IMG/VR virus record: IMGVR_UViG_3300027692_000003
DNA length: 34,200 bases
Direction: 5' to 3' (one strand)
Source of the DNA: a virus
Taxonomy: Duplodnaviria; Heunggongvirae; Uroviricota; Caudoviricetes
Part shown: piece by piece, positions 19,789-34,200 of the stretch
Layout: each line of letters opens with the position of its first letter
How positions within the stretch are numbered: the stretch's first letter is position 1
The notes under the pieces: generated by a model
The model's database searches: none
The model's input: only the letters and a program-made list of their open reading frames with translations
Told to the model about the DNA's origin: nothing
Made by a program: the position numbers and the translations under genes

Positions 19789-20175
19789 ATGGCGAAATAC
19801 GGCGATGCCCGCTGGCTCACCGAGCTACGCGCGATGGTCGCGCAGCGGCTGAAAGAGCAGAACACCACGCAGGTAGCCCTCGCCGAGCACCTCGGCATCA
19901 CCCCGAAGCACATGAACCAGTTCCTGCAAGGCACCGTCCTTGCGGGTAACCCGCTGCTGCTGGAACGCATGGCCGAAGCGGTGGGCCTCCGCATCACCAT
20001 CGCTGACTCGGGCCAGCCACCGCCACCGCTCCGCAAGCTGAGGCAGCGCCGGGCACAGGTCAAGGCACTCGCCGGCCTCGCGACCGCGAACGAAGAGGAC
20101 CTGGCCTACGTCCTGTCCGGCATCGATGGCGGGACCCGGGACCGGCTCAGGGCTTTGCTCGGCGGCGGGGAGTAA
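19789..20175 (+). CDS. XRE-family HTH regulator (probably leaderless)
   Basis: TTQVALAEHLGITPKHMNQFLQG; TAGGTT -10-like hexamer 7 nt before ATG. Confidence 0.8.
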   Translation: MAKYGDARWLTELRAMVAQRLKEQNTTQVALAEHLGITPKHMNQFLQGTVLAGNPLLLERMAEAVGLRITIADSGQPPPPLRKLRQRRAQVKALAGLATANEEDLAYVLSGIDGGTRDRLRALLGGGE

Positions 20176-20268: not shown

Positions 20269-22023
20269 GTGAGGGCTGTCGAGACACGCATGATCCAGCA
20301 GGCGTACCGGTTCGCCCTGGACCCCACCCCCCGGCAGGAGCGCATGCTCCGCTCCCACGCCGGCGCGGCCCGGTTCGCCTACAACTGGGGCAACGCGCAG
20401 ATCATCGCGGCCCTCGACGCGCGCGAAGCGGAGAAAGCCGCCGGGACGGAACCGGGCACCCCGGTACCGTCCCACTTCGACCTGTGCAAGATGTGGACGG
20501 CATGGAAGGACGCCCACGCCGCCGACCCGGAACCGCCGGAGGGTGAGCGCCGGACGAGCACCGCGTGGGTCAGCGAGAACTTCGTCGGCACCTACCAGGC
20601 CGCCCTGCGGGACGCGGCGAAAGCCTGGTCTGACTACTTCAAGTCCGCGAGAGGCGAACGTAAAGGACGCCGACTCGGCCGGCCCAGGTTCAAGAAACGG
20701 GGCCGGGCCCGTGACTCTTTCCAGGTCCACGGCACCACCCTCCGTCCCGTCGCAGCATCTGGTGACGGCGTCGCGTTCCGTGCCCGCCACCTCAGCCCCG
20801 GCTCGCACCGGGACGTCATCGTCCTGCCGAAGATCGGGCCGATCCTCCTCCACGAGTCCGCCCGGAAACTGCGCCGCCGCCTCGGCAAAGGCGAGGTCCC
20901 GTGCCCGGAATGCTGCCAGGCCGGCGTCGTACCTGCCACGGGCAGCACGAGACGCAAGGATGAGGTGCCGTGCCCGGCCGGGATGCATGCGGGTGCCGGG
21001 TGCCTGGTGTGCGACGGCGGCGGCCGGGTCCGCCCGTGCCCGGCATGCGGCGGCAGGCTGGCTGTCCCGGCCGCCCGGATCATCCGGGGCACCGTCGCGA
21101 GGGACAGTGACGGCCGCTGGTATATCAGCCTGACCGCGGAGATCGCCCGCGAGGTCCGCACCCGCACCGTCAGGGAGGTCCAGCCGGCCGGGACCGTGAC
21201 CCGGACCGCGGTGCCGGCGCCGACGGCGCGGCAGCGTGCGGGCGGTGTCGTAGGGGCCGACTTCGGGGTCCGGGACATTGCTACCCTGTCCGACGGCACG
21301 GCGATCGCGAACCCGCGCCACCTCGAAGCGGCGCTCGGGAAACTGGCGAAGGCACAGCAGGAAGTGGCGCGGTGCGAGAAGGATTCGGCCGGTCGCCGCC
21401 AGGCTGCCGCGAGGGTGGGGCGGCTGCATGCCAGGGTGAAGCACCTGCGGCTCGACGCCCTGCACAAGGCCACAAGCACCCTGGTCCAGTCGCGGGCGGT
21501 CATCGCCGTGGAGGGTTTCGACGTGCAGGAGACGGCACGGTACCGCCGGGGCGGGAAGGTAGACCGCGGCAAGGCGGAAGGCCGGGAGAAAGTCCCCGGC
21601 AAGGTACGGCAGGCCAGGAACCGTGCCCTGGCCGACACCGGGATCGGGATCGCCCGGTGGCAGCTGCAGTCCAAGGGTGCCTGGTACGGATGCCAGGTCC
21701 TGGTGATGGATAAGCACGCGCCGACCGGGCGGACATGCTCGGCGTGCGGGACGGCGAAAGCCAAGCCGGTCCCGCCCGCGGAAGAGATGTTCACCTGCGA
21801 GGCTTGCGGGGGCGTGATGCCGCGGCGGGTGAATACTGCCCGTGCGCTCGCATCACGTGCCCGTGTGAGCGTGTCCGTCGCCCCGAGTACCGGGGAGACG
21901 CTAAACGCCCGTGGAGGTGATGTAAGACCTGCCGCGGCTCGCCGTGGCGGGCAGTCGCCGTTGAAGCGGGAAGCCAGCACCCGGCCACCTGGCCGGGGTG
22001 AGCCTGGCAGTCCTGGCGGCTAA
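20269..22023 (+). CDS. tnpB: IS200/IS605 TnpB-family protein, CRISPR-adjacent, RuvC-III Asp missing, with Zn-finger insertion
   Basis: AYRFALDPT..Q...L..HAGAARFAYNW; GRPRFKKR; GADFG (RuvC-I); AVEG (RuvC-II); CSACG..CEACG; PRRVNTA where DRD.NAA is expected; alternative start ATG 20290. Confidence 0.9.
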   Translation: MRAVETRMIQQAYRFALDPTPRQERMLRSHAGAARFAYNWGNAQIIAALDAREAEKAAGTEPGTPVPSHFDLCKMWTAWKDAHAADPEPPEGERRTSTAWVSENFVGTYQAALRDAAKAWSDYFKSARGERKGRRLGRPRFKKRGRARDSFQVHGTTLRPVAASGDGVAFRARHLSPGSHRDVIVLPKIGPILLHESARKLRRRLGKGEVPCPECCQAGVVPATGSTRRKDEVPCPAGMHAGAGCLVCDGGGRVRPCPACGGRLAVPAARIIRGTVARDSDGRWYISLTAEIAREVRTRTVREVQPAGTVTRTAVPAPTARQRAGGVVGADFGVRDIATLSDGTAIANPRHLEAALGKLAKAQQEVARCEKDSAGRRQAAARVGRLHARVKHLRLDALHKATSTLVQSRAVIAVEGFDVQETARYRRGGKVDRGKAEGREKVPGKVRQARNRALADTGIGIARWQLQSKGAWYGCQVLVMDKHAPTGRTCSACGTAKAKPVPPAEEMFTCEACGGVMPRRVNTARALASRARVSVSVAPSTGETLNARGGDVRPAAARRGGQSPLKREASTRPPGRGEPGSPGG

Positions 22024-22072
22024 CTGCCAGGCGTCCACGTAACCCTGCCCGGGAAGGGCTGCCTAACTCAAC
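21854..22072 (+). ncRNA. putative omegaRNA/tracrRNA-like scaffold overlapping tnpB 3' end (boundaries approximate)
   Basis: Series of hairpins (CCCCG/CGGGG, CCCGGCC/GGCCGGG, GCCTGGCAGT/ACTGCCAGGC); AGACGCTAAACGCCCGTGGAGG..GTAAGACC..TGAAGCGGGAA resembles actinobacterial TnpB tails; segments complementary to the array repeat. Confidence 0.55.
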
Positions 22073-22111
22073 AGTGGCAAGAGTGCCCTATAAGCATGCA
22101 GCTCAGGAAGA

Positions 22112-23118
22112 GTGCAGCCCGCGGGCAGGTGGACGGCGGAAGGGGTGGTTTTCCCGGGCTTGGCCTGGCTTGGTGCAGCCCGCGGGCAGGTGGGCGACGG
22201 TAGCTGAGCCACTTTACGATGCATACCGGTCTGGTGCAGCCCCTGGGCACGTGGGCGACGGACACCGTAAGAACGAACAGGCGTTCTGGTTCAAGTGCAG
22301 CCCCTGGGCACGTGGGCGACGGACAACGTACCCGCCGAGGACTGGGGGCATTGGCGTGCAGCCCCTGGGCACGTGGCGACGGGAAGCTCGGTCCGCGCAC
22401 AGCGTCGGCGCGTATGTGCAGCCCCTGGGCACGTGGGCGACGGATGATCTACGTCACTAACACGTCTCGGCGTGGTGTGCAGCCCCTGGGCACGTGGGCG
22501 ACGGTTAGGCGCTGCTCTACGACGCGGGAGCGATCCAGTGCAGCCCCTGGGCACGTGGGCGACGGTACTCTGAGCTGGCTTGCCGATAGCCAGGACGTGC
22601 AGCCCCTGGGCACGTGGGCGACGGTTAGGCGCTGCTCTACGACGCGGGAGCGATCCAGTGCAGCCCCTGGGCACGTGGGCGACGGCAGGTCGATCGTAAC
22701 CCAGCCCCGTGGTTGCTGGTGCAGCCCCTGGGCACGTGGGCACGTGGGCGACGGACAACGTACCCGCCGAAGACTGGGGGCATTGGCGTGCAGCCCCTGG
22801 GCACGTGGGCGACGGTAGATCCGGCTCACCTCTTCGGTGAGCTGCTGAGTGCAGCCCCTGGGCACGTGGGCGACGGTACTCTGAGCTGGCTTGCCGATAG
22901 CCAGGACGTGCAGCCCCTGGGCACGTGGGCGACGGGGAAATGGAGAAGCGCATCGCCGCCACCAACATGTGCAGCCCCTGGGCACGTGGGCGACGGATGA
23001 CTCTCAAGTCCTCTAGCTGCAATGATCACGTGCAGCCCCTGGGCACGTGGGCGACGGGCTTGTGAGACCGATGCCAACCTCGATGATCTCGTGCAGCCCC
23101 TGGGCACGTGGGCGGACC
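22112..23118 (+). CRISPR. CRISPR array 1: 17 repeats (GTGCAGCCCCTGGGCACGTGGGCGACGG, 28 bp), 16 spacers
   Basis: Repeats start 22112, 22173, 22234, 22295, 22356, 22416, 22477, 22538, 22597, 22658, 22719, 22788, 22849, 22908, 22969, 23030, 23091; spacers 33 bp (two of 31); first two and last repeats degenerate; strand inferred. Confidence 0.95.
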
Positions 23119-23285
23119 GGCCGGTGGGAACCCGCCGACTTCGGCGGGATTACCTTGATGCTCAGGCCTGGCCGGCGGTCCCCGAGCTGAGCCCTCCGGG
23201 CTTCGCTGACCCGGCACCGGTGCCGGCGCTAGGCTGACCTCATGTCCCTGACCACCGCTACCGCCGCGGCGGGGGGACCGGTACG

Positions 23286-24593: not shown

Positions 24594-24666
24594 AGGGGTA
24601 TAGCTCAGACGGCAGAGCGGTGGTCTCCAAAACCACAGGTCGCGGGTTCGAAGCCTGCTACCCCTG
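24594..24666 (+). tRNA. trnW: tRNA-Trp(CCA)
   Basis: AGGGGTA/TACCCCT acceptor; GTGGT-CTCCAAA-ACCAC; TTCGAAG T-loop. Confidence 0.92.
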
Positions 24667-24785
24667 CGAGCACCACCCTCCGGGGTGAACGTGCCTGGCA
24701 CTACTTGACATGTCCATAGCGTGAGCATCAACAGGCAGGCTGCCGAGCCTGCCGACGCCGTCGCGGCTCCGGCTGCGGCGGTCTC

Positions 24786-24859
24786 GGGCTGCTAGCTCCA
24801 ACTGGCAGAGCGACTCCCTTGCAAGGAGAAGGCTCTCGGTTCAAATCCGAGGCAGTCCA
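24786..24859 (+). tRNA. trnA: tRNA-Ala(TGC)
   Basis: G3:U70 pair; loop CTTGCAA. Confidence 0.9.
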
Positions 24860-24902
24860 CGCGCGTGAGGATTGCAGCTAAGAGCCGCATATCCTTGCAA
24901 AC

Positions 24903-25376
24903 ATGAACGAGCTGCCCGTGCCCACTAAGCACTGCAAGAAATGCGATCTGGACAAGCCGCTCGGCGATTTCCACAACAGCGCGCGGGCGAAAGATGGCAG
25001 GTGGGCCTACTGCAAGGGCTGCTCAAACGCCCGCGCGCTGGCCTGGTATCACGAGAACAAGGACTCGGCCGAGTACCGCGACTTCTCGTTCAGGCAGCGG
25101 CTCAAGCGGTACGGGATGACCGAAGAGGACTACGCGGCGCTCCTTGCAAGGCAGGGTGGCGGCTGCTCTGTGTGTGGCGTCGCCGAAGGACTGGTCATCG
25201 ACCACGACCACGGGTGCTGCCCATCGAAACGCGGATGCTGTGGCAAATGCGTCCGGGGTCTTCTCTGTCAGCGTTGCAACCGGGTCTTCGGGAACCTTGA
25301 AGACTCGGCTCAACTGGTGAGGGCACTGCTGAGATATGCGGAGTCCCCGCCTAACGGGATGTCGCGTAAGGGTTAG
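24903..25376 (+). CDS. endonuclease VII-like (HNH-superfamily) homing endonuclease
   Basis: LLARQGGGCSVC, IDHDH..C..CGKCVRGLLCQRCN; N-terminal CKKC..KPL.DF..CKGC; stop lies inside tRNA-Pro. Confidence 0.88.
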   Translation: MNELPVPTKHCKKCDLDKPLGDFHNSARAKDGRWAYCKGCSNARALAWYHENKDSAEYRDFSFRQRLKRYGMTEEDYAALLARQGGGCSVCGVAEGLVIDHDHGCCPSKRGCCGKCVRGLLCQRCNRVFGNLEDSAQLVRALLRYAESPPNGMSRKG

Positions 25377-25426
25377 CGCGCCTGGCCTGGGACCAGGCGG
25401 ACGGAGTTCGAGTCTCTGCTTCCCGA
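25355..25426 (+). tRNA. trnP: tRNA-Pro(TGG)
   Basis: CGGGA../..TCCCG acceptor; CCTGG-CCTGGGA-CCAGG. Confidence 0.8.
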
Positions 25427-25504
25427 CTGCAAGACTGCCCGCCTGGGGTAGATGCGGCGGACATTCGCGCCGTCGGCTGGCAGTTGAAGAAAAGCCCCCG
25501 GCAT

Positions 25505-25579
25505 GCCTCCTTAGCTCAGTCCGGCAAGAGCGCTCGGTTGAAACCCGAGAGGTCCTCCGTTCGACTCGGAGAGGAGGAA
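25505..25579 (+). tRNA. trnF: tRNA-Phe(GAA)
   Basis: CTCGG-TTGAAAC-CCGAG; 1:72 mismatch. Confidence 0.85.
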
Positions 25580-25583
25580 CCGT

Positions 25584-25657
25584 GCCCTGCAAGCATTGCG
25601 GCGATGCGCCAGTCCTCCAAACTGGTGAGCGGAGTTCAATTCTCCGGTGGGGCTCCA
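25584..25657 (+). tRNA. trnG: tRNA-Gly(TCC)
   Basis: CCAGT-CCTCCAA-ACTGG; ends TCCA. Confidence 0.85.
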
Positions 25658-25658
25658 T

Positions 25659-25730
25659 GCGCCGCTAGCTCAGCGGTAGAGCAGGTGACTCTTAATCACT
25701 TGGCCGGGGGTTCGATCCCCTCGCGGCGCA
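25659..25730 (+). tRNA. trnK: tRNA-Lys(CTT)
   Basis: GCGCCGC/GCGGCGC; loop CTCTTAA. Confidence 0.92.
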
Positions 25731-25733
25731 CGC

Positions 25734-25807
25734 GGGCGAGTACGTCCAACGGCAGAGCGGCCGGGCTCAAACCTCGGTAGTTGCGGGTCCGAATCCCGCC
25801 TCGCCTA
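25734..25807 (+). tRNA. trnL: tRNA-Leu(CAA), short variable arm
   Basis: GGGCGAG/CTCGCCT; CCGGG-CTCAAAC-CTCGG; T-loop TCCGAAT. Confidence 0.7.
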
Positions 25808-25812
25808 CTCGA

Positions 25813-25886
25813 TGGCCATTAGGAGAATTGGCAGATCCGCCGGGCCCTGGACCCGGAGCTTCCTGGTTCGAGGCCAGGATGGCAGG
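25813..25886 (+). tRNA. trnQ: tRNA-Gln(CTG), 3' end probably damaged
   Basis: CCGGG-CCCTGGA-CCCGG; acceptor TGGCCAT/ATGGCAG with mismatch. Confidence 0.7.
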
Positions 25887-25938
25887 AGGCACCAGCATGA
25901 GGGGCTGGGCAGTGTGCGTTCGAGTCGCACCGGGGACA
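25881..25938 (+). pseudogene. tRNA-Leu(GAG) remnant lacking 5' acceptor strand
   Basis: CCAGC-ATGAGGG-GCTGG arm, GTGCG-TTCGAGT-CGCAC T arm, CGGGGACA end; no pairing 5' strand. Confidence 0.65.
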
Positions 25939-25942
25939 CGAT

Positions 25943-26010
25943 GCCCTTCGGGCCGGCGCCCGCGCGCCCCTTGTAAGGGTGCTGGCCCAGTTCGACCCTG
26001 GGGAAGGGCT
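25943..26010 (+). tRNA. trnT: tRNA-Thr(TGT), atypical D-arm
   Basis: GCCCTTC/GAAGGGC; GCGCCC-CTTGTAA-GGGTGC; CCCAG-TTCGACC-CTGGG. Confidence 0.7.
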
Positions 26011-26015
26011 CTTGA

Positions 26016-26088
26016 TGGGCAGTAGCTCAACTGGCAGAGCTGCGGTTTTTGGTGCCGCCGGTTTCAGGTTCGAACCCTGATTGCCCAG
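26016..26088 (+). tRNA. trnQ: tRNA-Gln(TTG)
   Basis: TGGGCAG/TTGCCCA; GCGGT-TTTTGGT-GCCGC. Confidence 0.88.
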
Positions 26089-26098
26089 CGTTTTCAGT

Positions 26099-26167
26099 GC
26101 CCTTCGGACCGGCGTCCACGCGTCCTTGGTATGGACGCGTCGCCCGGCTCGGCACCGGGGAAGGGCT
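26099..26167 (+). tRNA. trnT: tRNA-Thr(GGT), atypical D-arm
   Basis: GCCCTTC/GAAGGGC; GCGTCC-TTGGTAT-GGACGC; divergent T-loop CTCGGCA. Confidence 0.65.
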
Positions 26168-26171
26168 CTAT

Positions 26172-26242
26172 GCGGATGTGGTGTAGTGGCAGCTCATCAC
26201 CTTGCCATGGTGAAAGTCCGGGTTCGATTCCCGGTATCCGCT
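26172..26242 (+). tRNA. trnG: tRNA-Gly(GCC)
   Basis: GCGGATG/TATCCGC; TCACC-TTGCCAT-GGTGA. Confidence 0.88.
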
Positions 26243-26246
26243 CCGA

Positions 26247-26319
26247 GCCGTCCTAGCCCAATGGCAGAGGCACCGCGTTCAGGGCGCGGGTGTTCAGGGT
26301 TCGAATCCCTGGGACGGTA
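26247..26319 (+). tRNA. trnL: tRNA-Leu(CAG), short variable arm
   Basis: GCCGTCC/GGACGGT; CCGCG-TTCAGGG-CGCGG. Confidence 0.85.
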
Positions 26320-26324
26320 CGCAT

Positions 26325-26405
26325 GGAAGGTGAACCGGCCAGGGGCCGGGCTCCGTTGCTAGCGGATGCGCAGGGAACTGTGGCTTTCGAGTAGTCCGCC
26401 TTCCG
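26325..26405 (+). tRNA. trnS: tRNA-Ser(GCT), 8/4 fold
   Basis: GGAAGGTG/CGCCTTCC; loop TTGCTAG; long V arm; T stem GGCT/AGTC. Confidence 0.75.
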
Positions 26406-26447
26406 CTTGACGCCCGGCGGCGTCATGATCACCCGGATGATCCGCAT

Positions 26448-26532
26448 GGAGAGTTCGCCTAGCGGTCTATGGCGCCTCGCCGGAAACGAGGAGGGGAAAC
26501 CCGCGCAGGTTCGAATCCTGCACTCTCCGCCA
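26448..26532 (+). tRNA. trnS: tRNA-Ser(GGA)
   Basis: GGAGAGT/ACTCTCC-GCCA; CCTCG-CCGGAAA-CGAGG; V arm. Confidence 0.88.
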
Positions 26533-26570
26533 TCTCCCGTTTGTTCACACCGGACGAGAGAGCCGAACCT

Positions 26571-26596
26571 GGAAAGTGAACCGGCAAGGTGGCCGG
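26571..26596 (+). pseudogene. 5' fragment of a Ser-type tRNA truncated at the HNH gene
   Basis: GGAAAGTGAACCGGCAAGGTGGCCGG resembles the tRNA-Ser(GCT) 5' end GGAAGGTGAACCGGCCAGGGGCCGG. Confidence 0.55.
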
Positions 26597-26613
26597 ATGG
26601 CGTAAAATGAGTT

Positions 26614-27465
26614 ATGCGGAGTTTCAGCGATTGTACAGATTCCGAGTTTGCTGAAGCCGTTCCGATATCAGCTTCAATCGCAGAAGTGTCCAGGAAGCTC
26701 GGCCTACGCGGTAGCGGTAGTAACCACGTAAAGATATCGGATAAAATACGGTCCCTCGGGCTAGATACAGCTCATTTTACCAGTCGCGGCAAGAGATACA
26801 CCGACTCTGACAGCGACCTAGTCCTACTAAAGACATGTACCAAATGCCAACAGCGGAAACCGCTGAAGGACTTTCGAAGGTGCGCAGCGGCTAGAGATGG
26901 ACGTCGGCCGTCTTGCAGATCCTGCCTTAATAAGCACAATCAAATAATGGGCAAGCCCAATCTTTGCGCCTGCGGGAATCCCAAAACTAAGGTCGCCTTT
27001 CAGTGCGCCGAGTGCGCGAAGCGAAAACCAGAGTGGCGCATTAATAAGGACGGCTATGTCATCAAAACTGTCGACGGCAGGCAGATCTCTCAGCATCGGG
27101 AGGTCATGGAGCAACACCTTGGCCGTCCGCTGCAGCAACACGAAAACGTGCACCACAAGAACGGTCAGCGACAGGACAACCGGATTGAGAACCTTGAACT
27201 GTGGTCCTCATCTCAGCCTTCCGGGCAGCGAGTAGAGGACAAGCTAGCCTGGGCGAGATGGTTCATGGCACAGTACGGCGACTTGGAGAGCGTGCAGCCG
27301 GCGCTGCGGCCGGCTTCGAACGTCGGTAGCGGGTTAACGCCCGCGGGGCTCGACACCTCCGCTCTCCTCCATGGATGGCGCCTCGCCGGCGCGGGAACGG
27401 GCCTTGAAAGTCCGTGGCGGCTCAGGCCGTGGGGATCGACACCTCCGTCATCCGCGGGCATGTAG
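26614..27465 (+). CDS. HNH homing endonuclease; 3' tail reads through two tRNA genes
   Basis: QHREVMEQHLGRPL..HENVHHKNG.RQDNRIENLELW; visibly lower GC than flanks. Confidence 0.9.
   Translation: MRSFSDCTDSEFAEAVPISASIAEVSRKLGLRGSGSNHVKISDKIRSLGLDTAHFTSRGKRYTDSDSDLVLLKTCTKCQQRKPLKDFRRCAAARDGRRPSCRSCLNKHNQIMGKPNLCACGNPKTKVAFQCAECAKRKPEWRINKDGYVIKTVDGRQISQHREVMEQHLGRPLQQHENVHHKNGQRQDNRIENLELWSSSQPSGQRVEDKLAWARWFMAQYGDLESVQPALRPASNVGSGLTPAGLDTSALLHGWRLAGAGTGLESPWRLRPWGSTPPSSAGM
27285..27371 (+). tRNA. trnS: tRNA-Ser(CGA), 8/4 fold
   Basis: GGAGAGCG/CGCTCTCC-TCCA; loop TTCGAAC; V arm GCGGG/CCCGC. Confidence 0.7.
27373..27454 (+). tRNA. trnS: tRNA-Ser(TGA), 8/4 fold
   Basis: GGATGGCG/CGTCATCC; CGGGC-CTTGAAA-GTCCG; V arm. 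Confidence 0.72.
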
Positions 27466-27532
27466 CTCAGCAGGTCGGAGCAGCTCCCTGATAAGGAGAA
27501 GGACAGAGGTTCAAATCCTCTCTTGCCCACCA
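27456..27532 (+). tRNA. trnI: tRNA-Ile(GAT)
   Basis: Loop CTGATAA; ends ACCA. Confidence 0.9.
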
Positions 27533-27533
27533 T

Positions 27534-27608
27534 GGCGGCGTAGCTCAGCCGGTCAGAGCGCCGGACTCATAATCCGTGAGGCCGAAGGTTCAAATCCTTC
27601 CGTCGCTA
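27534..27608 (+). tRNA. trnM: tRNA-Met(CAT), elongator-type (Ile2 not excluded)
   Basis: GGCGGCG/CGTCGCT; loop CTCATAA. Confidence 0.88.
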
Positions 27609-27667
27609 CCGCAGGAAACGAGGAAAGAGATCACTATGCTGCGAAAACAGGTTCTGCCGATACCCAT

Positions 27668-27740
27668 GGGCCGCTAGCTCAACGGTCAGAGCGGGTGACT
27701 TTTAATCACACGGTTCAGGGTTCAATTCCCTGGCGGCCTA
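27668..27740 (+). tRNA. trnK: tRNA-Lys(TTT)
   Basis: GGGCCGC/GCGGCCT; loop CTTTTAA. Confidence 0.92.
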
Positions 27741-27751
27741 CGATCAGGAAT

Positions 27752-27825
27752 GCCCCGGTAGCTTAACCGGACAGAGCACGCGCCTTCTAAGCGCGGTGGT
27801 GCGCGTTCGAGTCGCGCACGGGGCA
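27752..27825 (+). tRNA. trnR: tRNA-Arg(TCT)
   Basis: CGCGC-CTTCTAA-GCGCG. Confidence 0.9.
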
Positions 27826-27928
27826 CGTGGTGGCCGAGGCACACCGGCTGGGTGGTATGCCAGCTACTGGCCCGGAACGGTTTAGGCAGGCGCGCGCCCC
27901 GCTGGCACTGGGGCGCACACCACACAAT

Positions 27929-28001
27929 GCTCCGTTGGAGTAGCGGATATCTCGCCAGGCTCTCAACCTGGAGATTGCCAGTTCAACCCTGGCACGGAGC
28001 A
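27929..28001 (+). tRNA. trnE: tRNA-Glu(CTC)
   Basis: GCTCCGT/ACGGAGC; CCAGG-CTCTCAA-CCTGG. Confidence 0.88.
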
Positions 28002-28114
28002 CTGCCCGAGTCGCGGGCCTAACGCCCGCGAGCCGAGGCGGCCGGCGCAGCCGACCAACCGCCCTGGCCTGTGCCGCGACGATCGGAAGCGGCACGCGAA
28101 GTCCGGGGCGGCAT

Positions 28115-28186
28115 GGCCCTATCGTCCATGGGTGAGGATCCGGGTTTTTCACACCCGGGAGCAGGGTTCGAGTCCCTGTAGGGCTA
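28115..28186 (+). tRNA. trnE: tRNA-Glu(TTC)
   Basis: GGCCCTA/TAGGGCT; CCGGGT-TTTTCAC-ACCCGG. Confidence 0.85.
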
Positions 28187-28187
28187 C

Positions 28188-28263
28188 TGCGGAGTAGAGG
28201 AGTCCGGTCGTCCTCAGCGGCCCCATAAGCCGAGAATCGCGGGTTCGAATCCCGCCTCCGCGA
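28188..28263 (+). tRNA. trnM: tRNA-Met(CAT), initiator-like
   Basis: TGCGGAG/CTCCGCG with weak 1:72 pair; GAGG/CCTC D stem; loop CCCATAA; lacks the full GGG/CCC anticodon stem. Confidence 0.75.
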
Positions 28264-28316
28264 CGAAGGCCCGCCGCGCGCCAGGACCGGTTTGGACGGC
28301 GAAGCGCGGTACTTAA

Positions 28317-28390
28317 TCTCGCGTGGTCTAACCAGGCAGGACGGCGGACTGTTAATCCGTATGGTGAAGGTTCGAATCCTTCCGCGAGAG
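28317..28390 (+). tRNA. trnN: tRNA-Asn(GTT)
   Basis: TCTCGCG/CGCGAGA; loop CTGTTAA. Confidence 0.9.
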
Positions 28391-28394
28391 CCGT

Positions 28395-28470
28395 GGTCTC
28401 TTAGCTCAATCGGGAGAGCGCCAGGTTGTCAACCTGGGGGCAGCGGGATCGAAACCCGCAGGGACCGCCA
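28395..28470 (+). tRNA. trnD: tRNA-Asp(GTC)
   Basis: CCAGG-TTGTCAA-CCTGG; ends GCCA. Confidence 0.9.
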
Positions 28471-28471
28471 A

Positions 28472-28544
28472 GCGCCCATCGTCTAAAGGACCAGGGCAGC
28501 GGCCTACGGAGCCGCTAATGGGGGTTCGACTCCTCCTGGGCGCG
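28472..28544 (+). tRNA. trnR: tRNA-Arg(ACG)
   Basis: GCGCCCA/TGGGCGC; loop CTACGGA. Confidence 0.9.
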
Positions 28545-28549
28545 CGTGA

Positions 28550-28621
28550 CGATCAGTAGCTCAGCGGCAGAGCAGCAGTCCTACAAACTGCGGTGCGGGA
28601 GTTCGAGTCTCTCCTGATCGA
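28550..28621 (+). tRNA. trnV: tRNA-Val(TAC)
   Basis: CGATCAG/CTGATCG; GCAGT-CCTACAA-ACTGC. Confidence 0.88.
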
Positions 28622-28622
28622 C

Positions 28623-28700
28623 GGTGGCCGAATCCAAAGCGGCCGAGGAGCCGGCCTGTGGAGCCGGTACGAGCGGGTTCGAGTCCCGCCGGTCACCCCA
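28623..28700 (+). tRNA. trnH: tRNA-His(GTG)
   Basis: G-1:C73; loop CTGTGGA; ends CCCA. Confidence 0.9.
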
Positions 28701-28701
28701 T

Positions 28702-28786
28702 GCGTCGGTGGCAGAGCGGTAATGCAGCGGCCTGTAAAGCCGCGGTCCTTGTGGCATCGGTGGTTCGATCCCATCTCGGCGCACCA
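28702..28786 (+). tRNA. trnY: tRNA-Tyr(GTA)
   Basis: Loop CTGTAAA; long V arm; ends ACCA. Confidence 0.9.
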
Positions 28787-28787
28787 G

Positions 28788-28861
28788 GCTTCCGTAGTGC
28801 AACGGAAAGGCACGGCCGCCTCCGGAGCGGCAGGCAGCAGGTTCGACTCCTGCCGGAAGCG
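28788..28861 (+). tRNA. trnR: tRNA-Arg(CCG)
   Basis: GCTTCCG/CGGAAGC; loop CTCCGGA. Confidence 0.9.
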
Positions 28862-28865
28862 CTAT

Positions 28866-28937
28866 GACGCACGTCTCGCTGGTGCGGGAGGCGGTCTGCA
28901 AAACCGTCGCGGCCCGGTTCGACTCCGGGGTGCGTCT
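28866..28937 (+). tRNA. trnC: tRNA-Cys(GCA), atypical D-arm
   Basis: GACGCAC/GTGCGTC-T; loop CTGCAAA; D arm TCTCGC-TGGT-GCGGGA. Confidence 0.8.
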
Positions 28938-28941
28938 TCAT

Positions 28942-29013
28942 CGGCCCGTGGTCCAGAGGACAGGACGGCGGCCTCCTAAGCTGTAAGCGCGGGTTCAAGT
29001 CCCGCCGGGCCGA
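28942..29013 (+). tRNA. trnR: tRNA-Arg(CCT)
   Basis: CGGCCCG/CGGGCCG; loop CTCCTAA. Confidence 0.88.
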
Positions 29014-31236: not shown

Positions 31237-33261
31237 ATGCCCGTCACCGCCCTGCCCGACGGAACCATCAGCACCGCCCGGTACGCAGCCCGCGGACCCG
31301 TCCCCGCCCCCGTCACCGAGGAACTCCGCCTCGGGAACTGGCTGGACAACCTCCTCACCGAGTACGAGCTGGACTACGAGGCCGCGAAAGCCGCCGCGTG
31401 GGAGGAAGACCCGCACGTCGCCCTCCTCCTCGCCGCCGTCACCGCAGCAGAGCAGGCATGGCAGGCTGCCCGTGACGAGTCCGCGGCCTGCAAGCAGAAA
31501 CTCGGCTACGCGAAGAGGACCGGTACCCCGGCCCGGATCGCCGCCGCGAAGGCTGCCGCGGCGCAGGCACAGCAGGCGTACCGGGCCGCGGTGAAGGCCC
31601 GGCAGGAAGCAGCAGCTGCCCTGCGGGACATCAAGGGCCTCCGCTGGCATGTCGCCAAGGCGGCGATCAATGCTGCCGCTGAGGAACGGGACCGGAAGAT
31701 CGCCGCGACCTACGGCCCGTACCGGGACCGGGGCGGCTACTGGGCGAACTGGGCTGAGCACGCGAAACATCACAAGACGGCCGCGAAACGGGTCCGGGAC
31801 ATGCGGAAACAGGGGCAGCCAGCCCAGCTGCGGTACCACCGGTTCGACGGGACCGGTACCGTCGTCGTCCAGATCCAGCGGGAACTCGGTGTCACCCCCG
31901 AGATCCGCGCCCAGGTCACCGCCCTGAAAGCAGCGGGCCGCACCCCGGGGCAGATAAAGGCGGAGACCGGGGTCAGGGCGATGACCGCCGCGAAGATGAA
32001 ACCCGAAGGCGCGGTCAAGGAAGGGGATCCGCCGTGCACCGCCGCTGCCCTCGCCGACGAGACGGGGAAGTGGCGGTCCTCGGTACGGCTCACCCCCGAG
32101 CTGCCGGCCGGGTTCGAGGAGCTGCCCCGCGGGGAGCGGCGCCGGATCGCCAGCCAGGGCATGTTCGCGATCCGCACCGGCTCCGCGGCGAACCTGGCGG
32201 TGAGTGTCGTCCCCGTCACTGTCCACCGGCGGATGCGCGGCGACGGCGACGTCAAGTACGCGAAGCTGACCGTCACCAGGAACGGCCCCGACAAGGACAT
32301 GTCCGTATCGCTGACCCAGCGTGTCCCCGCCCCCCAGCCGCGGGCCGGAGGGCGGCTGGTGTGCGTCCACGCCGGATGGCGGGCACTCCCCGACGGGTCC
32401 CTGCGGGTAGCGGTCATCTCCGGGGCCGGCCCCCTCACCCCGGGCCTCGCCGCACCGGGCGGCCGGGACGCCAGGGCTGGGGAACTCACCGGTGTCGTCC
32501 GTGACCTCGGGGACGGCTGCCATGAGGTTGTCATCCCGGCACGGTGGCGGGACCAGGACGCGGCGACCGCGAAAACCCGGTCCGTCCGGGACCTCGCCAG
32601 GGACACGGCGATCGCGGCGGCGGCAGACTGGCTCGCCGCAAGTCCCCGGTACGAGACGACGGACGGGGAGCCCCTCCCGGCCGCGCATGAGGTCCGGCGG
32701 TGGCAGTCACCGGGACGGCTCGCGGTCCTGGGGCAGCGGGCCGCACGCGGGGACTACGGCGACGACGCCGCCGGCCTCGGCGAGCTCATCGCCGGCTGGG
32801 CTGTACCTGACCTGGAGGCGTGGCGGCGGGAAGCCCGGGGACGCAGGCACCTGACCCGGCGCCGGGATGATGCGTGGGCGAACGTCGCCGCGTGGCTGTG
32901 CACCGGCACGAGGGAGGTCCGTGTCGATGAGTGGGATATCCGGGCCGTGACCCGCCGCCCGGGGCCGGGGGAGACTGATGACCCGCAGGCTGCGGCGGCC
33001 CGCGCGAACCGTACCCTCGCCGCCCCCGGGGCTCTGCGCCAGCGGCTCACCATCACCGCTGTCCTCGCCGGGGTGACTGTTACTGTCCTCGACCCCCCTG
33101 ATGCCGGTTCGGTCCTGCAGGTCCATGCGGGGTGCGGCGGGGTACTCGACCGCGACGCACGCAGGGAATCCATTGTCGTGCAGTGCCCTGGGTGCGGCGC
33201 GAGAGTTGACCAGGACGTGAACATGGTGCGGCTGATGGCTGCGCGCCAGCCGTCCGCCTGA
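31237..33261 (+). CDS. cas12m: Cas12m (type V-M / V-U1) nuclease-inactive effector
   Basis: YWANW..HHKTA.KR, LRYHRFDGTGT..VQIQR, LADE.GK, VHAGWR (His at RuvC-I), WQSP.R, RRDD, AAPGALR, C..C..DQD, as recalled from Mycolicibacterium Cas12m; adjacent 36-bp array. Confidence 0.88.
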   Translation: MPVTALPDGTISTARYAARGPVPAPVTEELRLGNWLDNLLTEYELDYEAAKAAAWEEDPHVALLLAAVTAAEQAWQAARDESAACKQKLGYAKRTGTPARIAAAKAAAAQAQQAYRAAVKARQEAAAALRDIKGLRWHVAKAAINAAAEERDRKIAATYGPYRDRGGYWANWAEHAKHHKTAAKRVRDMRKQGQPAQLRYHRFDGTGTVVVQIQRELGVTPEIRAQVTALKAAGRTPGQIKAETGVRAMTAAKMKPEGAVKEGDPPCTAAALADETGKWRSSVRLTPELPAGFEELPRGERRRIASQGMFAIRTGSAANLAVSVVPVTVHRRMRGDGDVKYAKLTVTRNGPDKDMSVSLTQRVPAPQPRAGGRLVCVHAGWRALPDGSLRVAVISGAGPLTPGLAAPGGRDARAGELTGVVRDLGDGCHEVVIPARWRDQDAATAKTRSVRDLARDTAIAAAADWLAASPRYETTDGEPLPAAHEVRRWQSPGRLAVLGQRAARGDYGDDAAGLGELIAGWAVPDLEAWRREARGRRHLTRRRDDAWANVAAWLCTGTREVRVDEWDIRAVTRRPGPGETDDPQAAAARANRTLAAPGALRQRLTITAVLAGVTVTVLDPPDAGSVLQVHAGCGGVLDRDARRESIVVQCPGCGARVDQDVNMVRLMAARQPSA

Positions 33262-33585: not shown

Positions 33586-34200
33586 GTCGAAACGCCAGCT
33601 CAGGGCGACGGTTTCTGAGACGCCTCGCTCGGGCTGAACCCCGACGTGGATGAGTTCACCGCGTCGAAACGCCAGCTCAGGGCGACGGTTTCTGAGACCC
33701 TATCGGCACGCGTGGCCGCCAACGCCGACGGCTCGTCGAAACGCCAGCTCAGGGCGACGGTTTCTGAGACCTCCTGGCCACCGCCGCGCCCGTCATCTCG
33801 CTGCTCGTGTCGAAACGCCAGCTCAGGGCGACGGTTTCTGAGACCCTGCGCTCCATGTCCTCGGTTGGGTCGACCACGCGCGGCGTCGAAACGCCAGCTC
33901 AGGGCGACGGTTTCTGAGACATACGGATGTTGCGGATGTAGCCCCTTTGGACCGCCTGTCGAAACGCCAGCTCAGGGCGACGGTTTCTGAGACGTCTGAG
34001 CCGGGCCGTTCGTGCCTGCCAGTTACCGCGTCGAAACGCCAGCTCAGGGCGACGGTTTCTGAGACTCTGAGCTGAACCTCAAGCGCGTCGCAGCGCGGCA
34101 CCGTCGAAACGCCAGCTCAGGGCGACGGTTTCTGAGACGGCCCCCACGGCATCCGCGTCAACGCGATCTCGCCAGGGGTGTCGAAACGCCAGCTCAGGGC
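33586..34200 (+). CRISPR. CRISPR array 2: repeat GTCGAAACGCCAGCTCAGGGCGACGGTTTCTGAGAC (36 bp), 8 full plus 1 truncated repeat, 8 spacers of 36-41 bp; continues beyond window
   Basis: Identical repeats start 33586, 33663, 33735, 33809, 33885, 33958, 34030, 34103, 34180. Confidence 0.97.

Follow-up and report, generated by a model that had tools for sequence, protein, structure and literature searches.

Can an RNA-guided effector that carries an arginine in place of its last catalytic RuvC residue still cut DNA, and if it cannot, how might it be used? The question is raised by a gene in a 34,200-nucleotide stretch of viral DNA (IMG/VR record IMGVR_UViG_3300027692_000003), referred to here as the window. 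An initial annotation, made from the sequence alone, had described the gene product as a CRISPR-linked TnpB with intact RuvC-I and RuvC-II residues and an Asp-to-Arg change in RuvC-III, and had proposed a multiplexed, array-programmed, TldR-like binder.

The effector and its clade

The gene and the positions on which the question turns are as follows:

20269..22023, + strand: Cas12n-like, TnpB-derived effector gene (P0001), 584 aa from a GTG start or 577 aa from the ATG at 20290
20878..21072, + strand: cysteine-rich insertion, aa 204-268, within the N-terminal lobe and of DnaJ-like CxxCxGxG type; only some clade members have it
21259..21261, + strand: RuvC-I D331 (GADFG; codon GAC), kept in 116/116 clade members among the matches listed
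21511..21513, + strand: RuvC-II E415 (AVEG; codon GAG), kept in 116/116 clade members among the matches listed
21736..21807, + strand: C4 zinc ribbon (TNB), CxxC..CxxC, intact (C490, C493, C510, C513)
21784..21786, + strand: E506, occupying the site of the conserved TNB arginine and aligned to R347 of ISDra2
21826..21828, + strand: RuvC-III position, R520 (codon CGG; PRRVNTA), replacing the catalytic Asp

P0001 matches the Pfam families HTH_OrfB_IS605, OrfB_IS605 and Cas12f1-like_TNB; it scores above the cut-off of the guided_TnpB model NF040570 and below those of the IS607_TnpB and IS200_TnpB models. In ungapped phmmer alignments R520 falls on the second aspartate of DRDxNAA, which is D484 in RdCas12n (9j09), and on D361 of ISDra2 TnpB (8bf8), both numbers having been obtained by counting within the alignments. 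D484 (PMC12216341) and D361 (PMC10097598) have been named as catalytic. An AlphaFold2 model of P0001, built on a 72-sequence alignment (mean pLDDT 86.4), has strand 327-332 ending in D331, strand 411-414 followed directly by E415, and helix 519-536 opening with R520; in this predicted fold the three residues occupy the canonical RuvC positions. The initial annotation was thus right about the intact RuvC-I aspartate and RuvC-II glutamate, and about the arginine at RuvC-III. The C-terminal tail (aa 539-584) was modelled with a pLDDT under 50.

The cysteines of the ribbon are widely kept among the 116 clade members listed (C490 in 116, C493 in 109, C510 in 103, C513 in 109). The region of the cysteine-rich insertion varies in length and holds two to four CxxC motifs, at least one CxxC being present in 43 of the 120 sequences aligned (best 120 of 1974 hits); a precomputed annotation assigns PF00684 to the insertion in the homologue P0049.

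The alignment consisted of P0001 and 119 homologues (the best 120 of 1974 hits, with the self hit dropped), sharing 45-81% identity. The residues D, E and R stand at the three positions in 116 of these 120 sequences, and D, E and D in the other four, so that the substitution is conserved in homologues, a check that the initial annotation had called for. A first tree set 28 sampled D-E-R proteins beside 32 others. The former came out as monophyletic (support 0.94), with the four D-E-D proteins as their sister group (support 1.0); the latter, the P0093 group among the homologues listed, are about 50-57% identical. When sampling was widened to the best 150 representatives at 50% identity, 92 were D-E-D, 32 D-E-R, 6 D-E-Q and 3 D-E-H, the rest being rarer types or truncated. 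A second tree, of 144 tips from these representatives after seven short rows had been dropped, joined 28 D-E-R proteins, P0001 among them, with one D-E-T protein in a clade with support 1.0. Within this set, the main D-E-R branch accounts for about 27 of the clusters formed at 50% identity. Two further D-E-R proteins sit in a separate 11-tip lineage together with D-E-H, D-E-T, ERE, KEN, NQG and HYG proteins, a composition that fits loss of the RuvC-III residue as a route to full inactivation.

The codon of R520 is CGG, CGT or CGC across ten loci, and three arginine codons together with D, E and R in 116 of 120 sequences argue that the residue is neither a sequencing error, nor chance, nor the private decay of one copy. 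In rough pairwise comparisons of P0001 with nine loci, dN/dS lay at 0.09-0.50 for the RuvC segments and at 0.18-0.39 for the N-lobe; the D-E-R clade is under purifying selection. The case that the initial annotation had set against its own reading, of homologues that keep the aspartate and a single copy under relaxed selection, is excluded by fixation across the clade and by these RuvC values.

Clade members were found in at least one of 401 Actinomycetes genomes; a stricter first look found none in 401 genomes of the genus of G001, and none was found in 56 genomes of another order, all three counts being lower bounds. A search for viral loci of the D-E-D sister group found none. Both trees, whose tips did not include RdCas12n and AcCas12n, put the clade close to proteins with HHD-like motifs and close to the array-linked L063 and L034.

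The RuvC-III aspartate has also been lost, to H, R, T or Q, in other lineages (P0155, P0157, P0159, P0171, P0185, P0186, P0150, P0174 and P0168; P0191, P0214, P0229 and P0247); some of these have lost all three catalytic residues. L034 (5968-9342), on a 202-kb viral record, encodes a related effector with an E-R-E site, an eight-repeat array and a downstream Cas1-like gene.

Guide RNA, array and genomic setting

Around the effector gene, and overlapping its end, lie the following features:

19789..20175, + strand: small gene of HTH repressor-like type, immediately upstream of the effector and unconserved in other loci
21876..22038, + strand: omegaRNA-derived, tracrRNA-like scaffold overlapping the ORF end, its boundaries inferred from conservation
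22032..22038, + strand: anti-repeat, pairing with the 3' half of the CRISPR repeat
22065..22074, + strand: near-invariant AACTCAAyAG motif after the scaffold
22112..23119, + strand: CRISPR array of 17 repeats of about 28 nt and 16 spacers, mostly of 33 nt

Within the scaffold, positions 21963-22035 match the Rfam family RF03015 (Transposase-2) at 49.8 bits. The scaffold is conserved in 12 loci with covarying stems, 35 of its 54 predicted pairs showing two-sided change. RNAalifold, unprompted, predicted a 7-bp helix between 22032-22038 and the first repeat, in the 3' half of the latter. Across loci, 95% of 84 cells of this tracr:repeat helix pair and five cells have changed on both sides; none of 500 shuffles reached either value and slid controls paired at 46-69%, figures that come from related sequences and do not represent probabilities. 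Each locus has its own repeat with a matching anti-repeat. A pairing of the scaffold's 5' end with the repeat was considered and rejected, that end folding as an internal hairpin. The AACTCAAyAG motif may be a relic of the right end of an ancestral transposon.

The array begins 89 nt past the effector stop codon. Its linkage to the effector had been claimed by the initial annotation and stands, as does the claim of multiplex programming: array and tracrRNA-like scaffold together make the effector multiplex-programmable. Three spacer pairs are duplicated (7 and 9, 8 and 13 identical; 4 and 11 different at one base). Repeats and spacer length are of a kind that we take to be type I-E-like, which suggests acquisition by a host Cas1-Cas2. 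When loci with at least 200 nt of downstream sequence were counted (11 clade loci, L003 and L007 being too short), arrays were present in eight, namely the window, L001, L002, L004, L005, L006, L030 and L031, and absent from L032 and L033, a near-identical pair, and from L053. At least three repeats were found in 2 of 57 other loci with the same flank, a count that includes the unpublished genomes G268 and G378, neither of which has an array; no positive finding depends on these two or on G035. A scan for promoters and terminators found none.

The first two repeats of the window array (22112-22200) are unlike the rest; the first is a perfect complement of the anti-repeat, and the main repeat pairs with it through one G-U. 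At L053 (2710-2960, in the bacterial genome G263) a clade member without an array lies between two crcB fluoride-exporter genes, and a short loop joins its anti-repeat to the half repeat, which amounts to a natural single guide.

The window carries 25 tRNA-clan matches at 24594-29013, interrupted by endonuclease VII and HNH genes, and phage-family matches in its endonuclease VII, HNH, helicase and nucleotidyltransferase genes. An identical protein is present on a 165-kb contig, and three clade members lie on IMG/VR records of 132-160 kb with estimated completeness of 98-100%. Most clade loci found are viral or metagenomic; the named homologues among the matches listed belong to Streptomyces, Streptosporangium, [Actinomadura] and Jiangella. 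The source is likely an actinobacterial phage, an origin that we infer, since no virion gene was found among the window ORFs scanned. Neither a transposase nor cas1 was found among the effector neighbours scanned, no partner gene was common to the eight clade loci scanned, and no fliC/oppF-type neighbour occurred among the neighbours scanned. There was no conserved left end, the upstream DNA of ten loci being unconserved beyond the ribosome-binding site. A family 2 glycosyltransferase gene lies upstream of the effector at L001 (3076-4644), L005 (1936-4568) and L032 (3075-5815), accompanied by GH26 in two of the three, possibly as a shared accessory region.

Searches for spacer targets gave no convincing hit. 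The window array had no match in phages, one weak match in plasmids (E 0.9), a best E of 0.13 in five viral records and nine weak matches in 401 Actinomycetes genomes (best spacer 25/33). The arrays of L030, L001 and L031 gave self or repeat matches, and otherwise weak ones, in the five viral records, and the L030 array reached 24/33 and 27/39 at best in 301 genomes. The L053 guide matched only a repetitive stretch in its own genome. Single spacers searched in IMG/VR found themselves (L030, L001), nothing (L005) or two matches taken as chance (L006; 23/33 and 26/33). No spacer target was found, so that the effector is a putative repressor.

Active-site pocket and possible function

The D-E-R clade was compared with 32 other relatives, including the E-R-E protein L034, around the active site. 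All clade members carry D416G and L450R, position 417 is W or F, and N418D is present in 89%, N being retained in 11%. The lid motif after E415, EDLNVxGM in D-type relatives, reads EG[W/F]DVxxT in the clade. M422, a methionine in 97% of the 32 others, is absent from the clade; SSK has become TGR at 486-488, L503 is replaced by P, and positions 523 and 526 are also altered. Position 506 is R in 91% of the others and E or D in the clade, where the 116 members listed have E in 90, D in 19, Q in 4, N in 2 and P in 1 (109 acidic, 7 non-acidic); it is non-acidic in 6 of the 32 D-E-R representatives among the best 150. In Un1Cas12f1, M427, F487 and R490 are reported to shape the path of the scissile strand, R490 being essential (PMC8053092). 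Judged by motif spacing, positions 422, 503 and 506 would correspond to these three, and by this analogy the substrate-positioning residues appear to have been lost together with the RuvC-III aspartate. The alignment of the best 120 of 1974 hits has 36 invariant columns among 446 well-occupied ones. Of its 41 acidic positions D331 and E415 alone are invariant, and none of the 41 offers an invariant acid that would substitute for the lost aspartate.

We regard it as rather probable that the D-E-R effector, programmed by its array, binds DNA but is unable to cut both strands of it, and would serve the likely phage as a programmable roadblock. The tracrRNA and crRNAs would assemble on the effector as in RdCas12n, and an R-loop would form at a PAM, probably A-rich as in Cas12n. 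Loss of the RuvC-III aspartate would remove a ligand of metal A, the nucleophile-activating ion, and double-strand cleavage would fail. D331 and E415 would still hold one metal (B), and the clade-specific R450, R488 and R520 might grip the displaced strand, so that the site would mirror the HDD arrangement in Cas12m2. Binding would then block transcription or replication of the target, most plausibly a competing mobile element or a host gene, and spacers would be supplied in trans by a host type I-E adaptation module.

The assignment of the metals is made by analogy with Cas12m2, in which triad residues 1 and 3 bind metal A and residues 1 and 2 metal B (PMC10442227). The same source reports that the one-metal site of Cas12m2 holds the non-target strand, that silencing depends on this site, and that restoring DED did not bring cutting back. 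Any single DED change is reported to abolish cleavage by TnpB (bioRxiv 2023.11.30.569447), and AGO1, a slicer with an RNase H fold, is disabled when its last catalytic position holds an arginine (PMC9262622). A non-cutting, array-programmed binder is favoured because of the predicted loss of metal A, the three arginines nearby in sequence and the AGO1 parallel.

Against it speaks the invariance of D331 and E415 (116/116), which one would expect if the site were still catalytic. In addition, R506-to-E and D520-to-R exchange their charges exactly, which could mark a rearranged site. Two census papers warn that conserved non-canonical sites can stay active (PMC10691335, PMC10278001), and the third catalytic position of Fanzor is reported to tolerate Asn. 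It is conceivable, if on balance rather unlikely, that the site has been retooled: D331, E415 and E/D506 (or D418) may form a rearranged triad with R520 binding phosphate, or a one-metal site may nick DNA, cut single strands or mature its own tracrRNA and crRNA. Some chemistry may remain, given that D331 and E415 are the only invariant acids of the clade. TnpB uses RuvC to mature its own RNA (bioRxiv 2023.11.30.569447), Cas12c and Cas12j process pre-crRNA there (PMC10442227), and several TnpBs are reported to process RNA without dsDNA activity (PMC10278001). Retention of D and E with loss of the third acid also recurs, as D-E-Q in six and D-E-H in three of the best 150 representatives. Since it mirrors R520, E506 is the residue most likely to act as a rearranged third acid, if there is one, and N418D is found in 89% of the clade; neither 506 nor 418 is invariant, however, and the spread of residues at 506 makes E506 look more like a salt-bridge partner. 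The substrate-positioning Met and Leu are gone, and other D-E-X lineages among the best 150 representatives mostly lack an acid at 506.

A different use of a non-cutting protein, as a dead binder serving an integrase, transposase or transcription factor or as a decoy for host CRISPR RNAs, seems improbable. Exaptations of this kind are known for other dead Cas12 and TnpB proteins (PMC10691335), HTH genes adjoin the effector in the window (19789-20175), L002 and L031, an integrase lies downstream in L030, and the variable zinc-finger insertion could be a contact surface. Yet no partner gene is shared by the eight clade loci scanned, and a repeat with its matched anti-repeat at each locus fits a self-contained guide system. 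That the gene is a transposon relic in decay, next to an array unrelated to it, can scarcely be maintained. The missing arrays at L032/L033 and L053 and the duplicated spacers of the window array would suit such a relic, but fixation across the clade, purifying selection, the use of synonymous codons for the arginine, the presence of arrays at 8 of 11 loci and the covarying tracr:repeat pairing have already largely refuted it.

Relation to other type V systems

The best solved relative of P0001 is RdCas12n (9j09; E 1.5e-34 with the single sequence, 1.7e-73 with a profile). In ancestry and RNA layout the D-E-R effector appears to be an offshoot of Cas12n that has departed from its catalytic triad; Cas12n is V-U4, termed type V-N by Fu et al. 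2025 (PMC12216341). It shares with Cas12n the TnpB-sized monomeric architecture, a tracr region overlapping the ORF, a low-confidence C-terminal tail and an array without cas1, and with the AcCas12n clade a resemblance in the PAM-side motif SFQVHG, whose His recalls the HHD-like motif described there (PMC12216341). It differs in the RuvC-III Arg for Asp, the TNB Glu for Arg, the remodelled lid and, in about a third of the aligned sequences, the cysteine-rich insertion. Characterised Cas12n proteins are active nucleases with D-E-D, whereas the effector here is D-E-R by sequence.

With MmCas12m2 (V-M) it has in common an array-programmed guide, carriage on mobile elements and a conserved non-canonical RuvC site, Cas12m being reported as naturally non-cutting (PMC10442227). 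The HDD site of Cas12m keeps metal A (PMC10442227), whereas D-E-R would by analogy keep metal B. Cas12m is described as lacking a tracrRNA, with repeats of 36 nt, a REC2 insertion and TTN as its PAM, unlike the effector here, which has a tracr. P0001 alone retrieves no Cas12m structure, and a search with the clade profile matches such structures weakly (E 5e-12 or worse).

Like TldR proteins, the effector is TnpB-derived and predicted to be nuclease-dead, and some members of both groups are phage-borne (bioRxiv 10.1101/2023.11.30.569447). TldRs are defined by at least two DED changes and a single omegaRNA-like non-CRISPR guide, and lie beside fliC/oppF (bioRxiv 2023.11.30.569447), whereas the window effector differs from DED at one residue, keeps its zinc ribbon and has a tracr with a 17-repeat array; L053 does have a fused single guide. 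The TldR-like label of the initial annotation is not supported: one DED change, an array with a tracr and Cas12n as closest solved relative speak for another placement. The TldR screen left out single-residue cases by design (bioRxiv 2023.11.30.569447), and the D-E-R clade is a case of this excluded kind.

A conserved RuvC-III motif change is shared with RuvC-III-altered TnpB branches and with the candidates V-U6 to V-U45 (PMC10691335), among which Altae-Tran et al. 2023 name V-U24, V-U43 and V-U44 as CRISPR-linked branches with altered sites (PMC10691335). Branch RIIIr-4 has Asp-to-His, no zinc finger and a neighbouring RHH antitoxin (PMC10691335), whereas the change here is Asp-to-Arg. From mobile IS605/IS607 TnpB the effector differs in having no TnpA among the neighbours scanned, no conserved left end and an altered nuclease triad. 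Cleavage has been lost several times among type V effectors, including V-C, V-M and V-K (PMC12669027). An Asp-to-Arg Cas12n clade is undescribed in the accessible parts of the literature searched, and the tables of PMC10691335, with six RuvC-III-altered branches and V-U6 to V-U45, may list it.

More tentatively, the clade may represent an undescribed, largely phage-borne type V subtype: an offshoot of Cas12n whose pocket has been rebuilt as a one-metal, arginine-lined clamp with a reciprocal Arg/acid swap, which would silence DNA and yet be able to mature its own RNAs or to nick, beside a second dead effector, Cas12m. If this were true, one phage would carry two independent natural CRISPRi systems, the D-E-R effector and a Cas12m with a host-gene spacer. 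Since the clade has one DED change and its sister group an intact D-E-D site, the switch from cutter to binder can be tested residue by residue, and the clade offers a test of whether a RuvC site with only Asp and Glu keeps RNA or nicking chemistry. A natural, monomeric, non-cutting binder of about 490 aa with a fused guide, as at L053, would give CRISPRi or base editing in Actinobacteria a compact scaffold.

The second type V system of the window is encoded at 31237-33261 (+ strand), where a Cas12m homologue matches 8pm4 (E 6e-52) and has H at RuvC-I, making it HDD-type by motif; it was not found in five related viral records. Its array (33586-34200) has 36-nt repeats and continues past the window end. 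Matches to this array were found in 40 of 301 genomes, nearly all at the eighth spacer (34139-34178), which matches cellular SDR oxidoreductase genes of Actinomycetes genomes at up to 35 of 40 nt, its true target genome not being among those that matched; the sequence similarity suggests that this spacer is host-derived.
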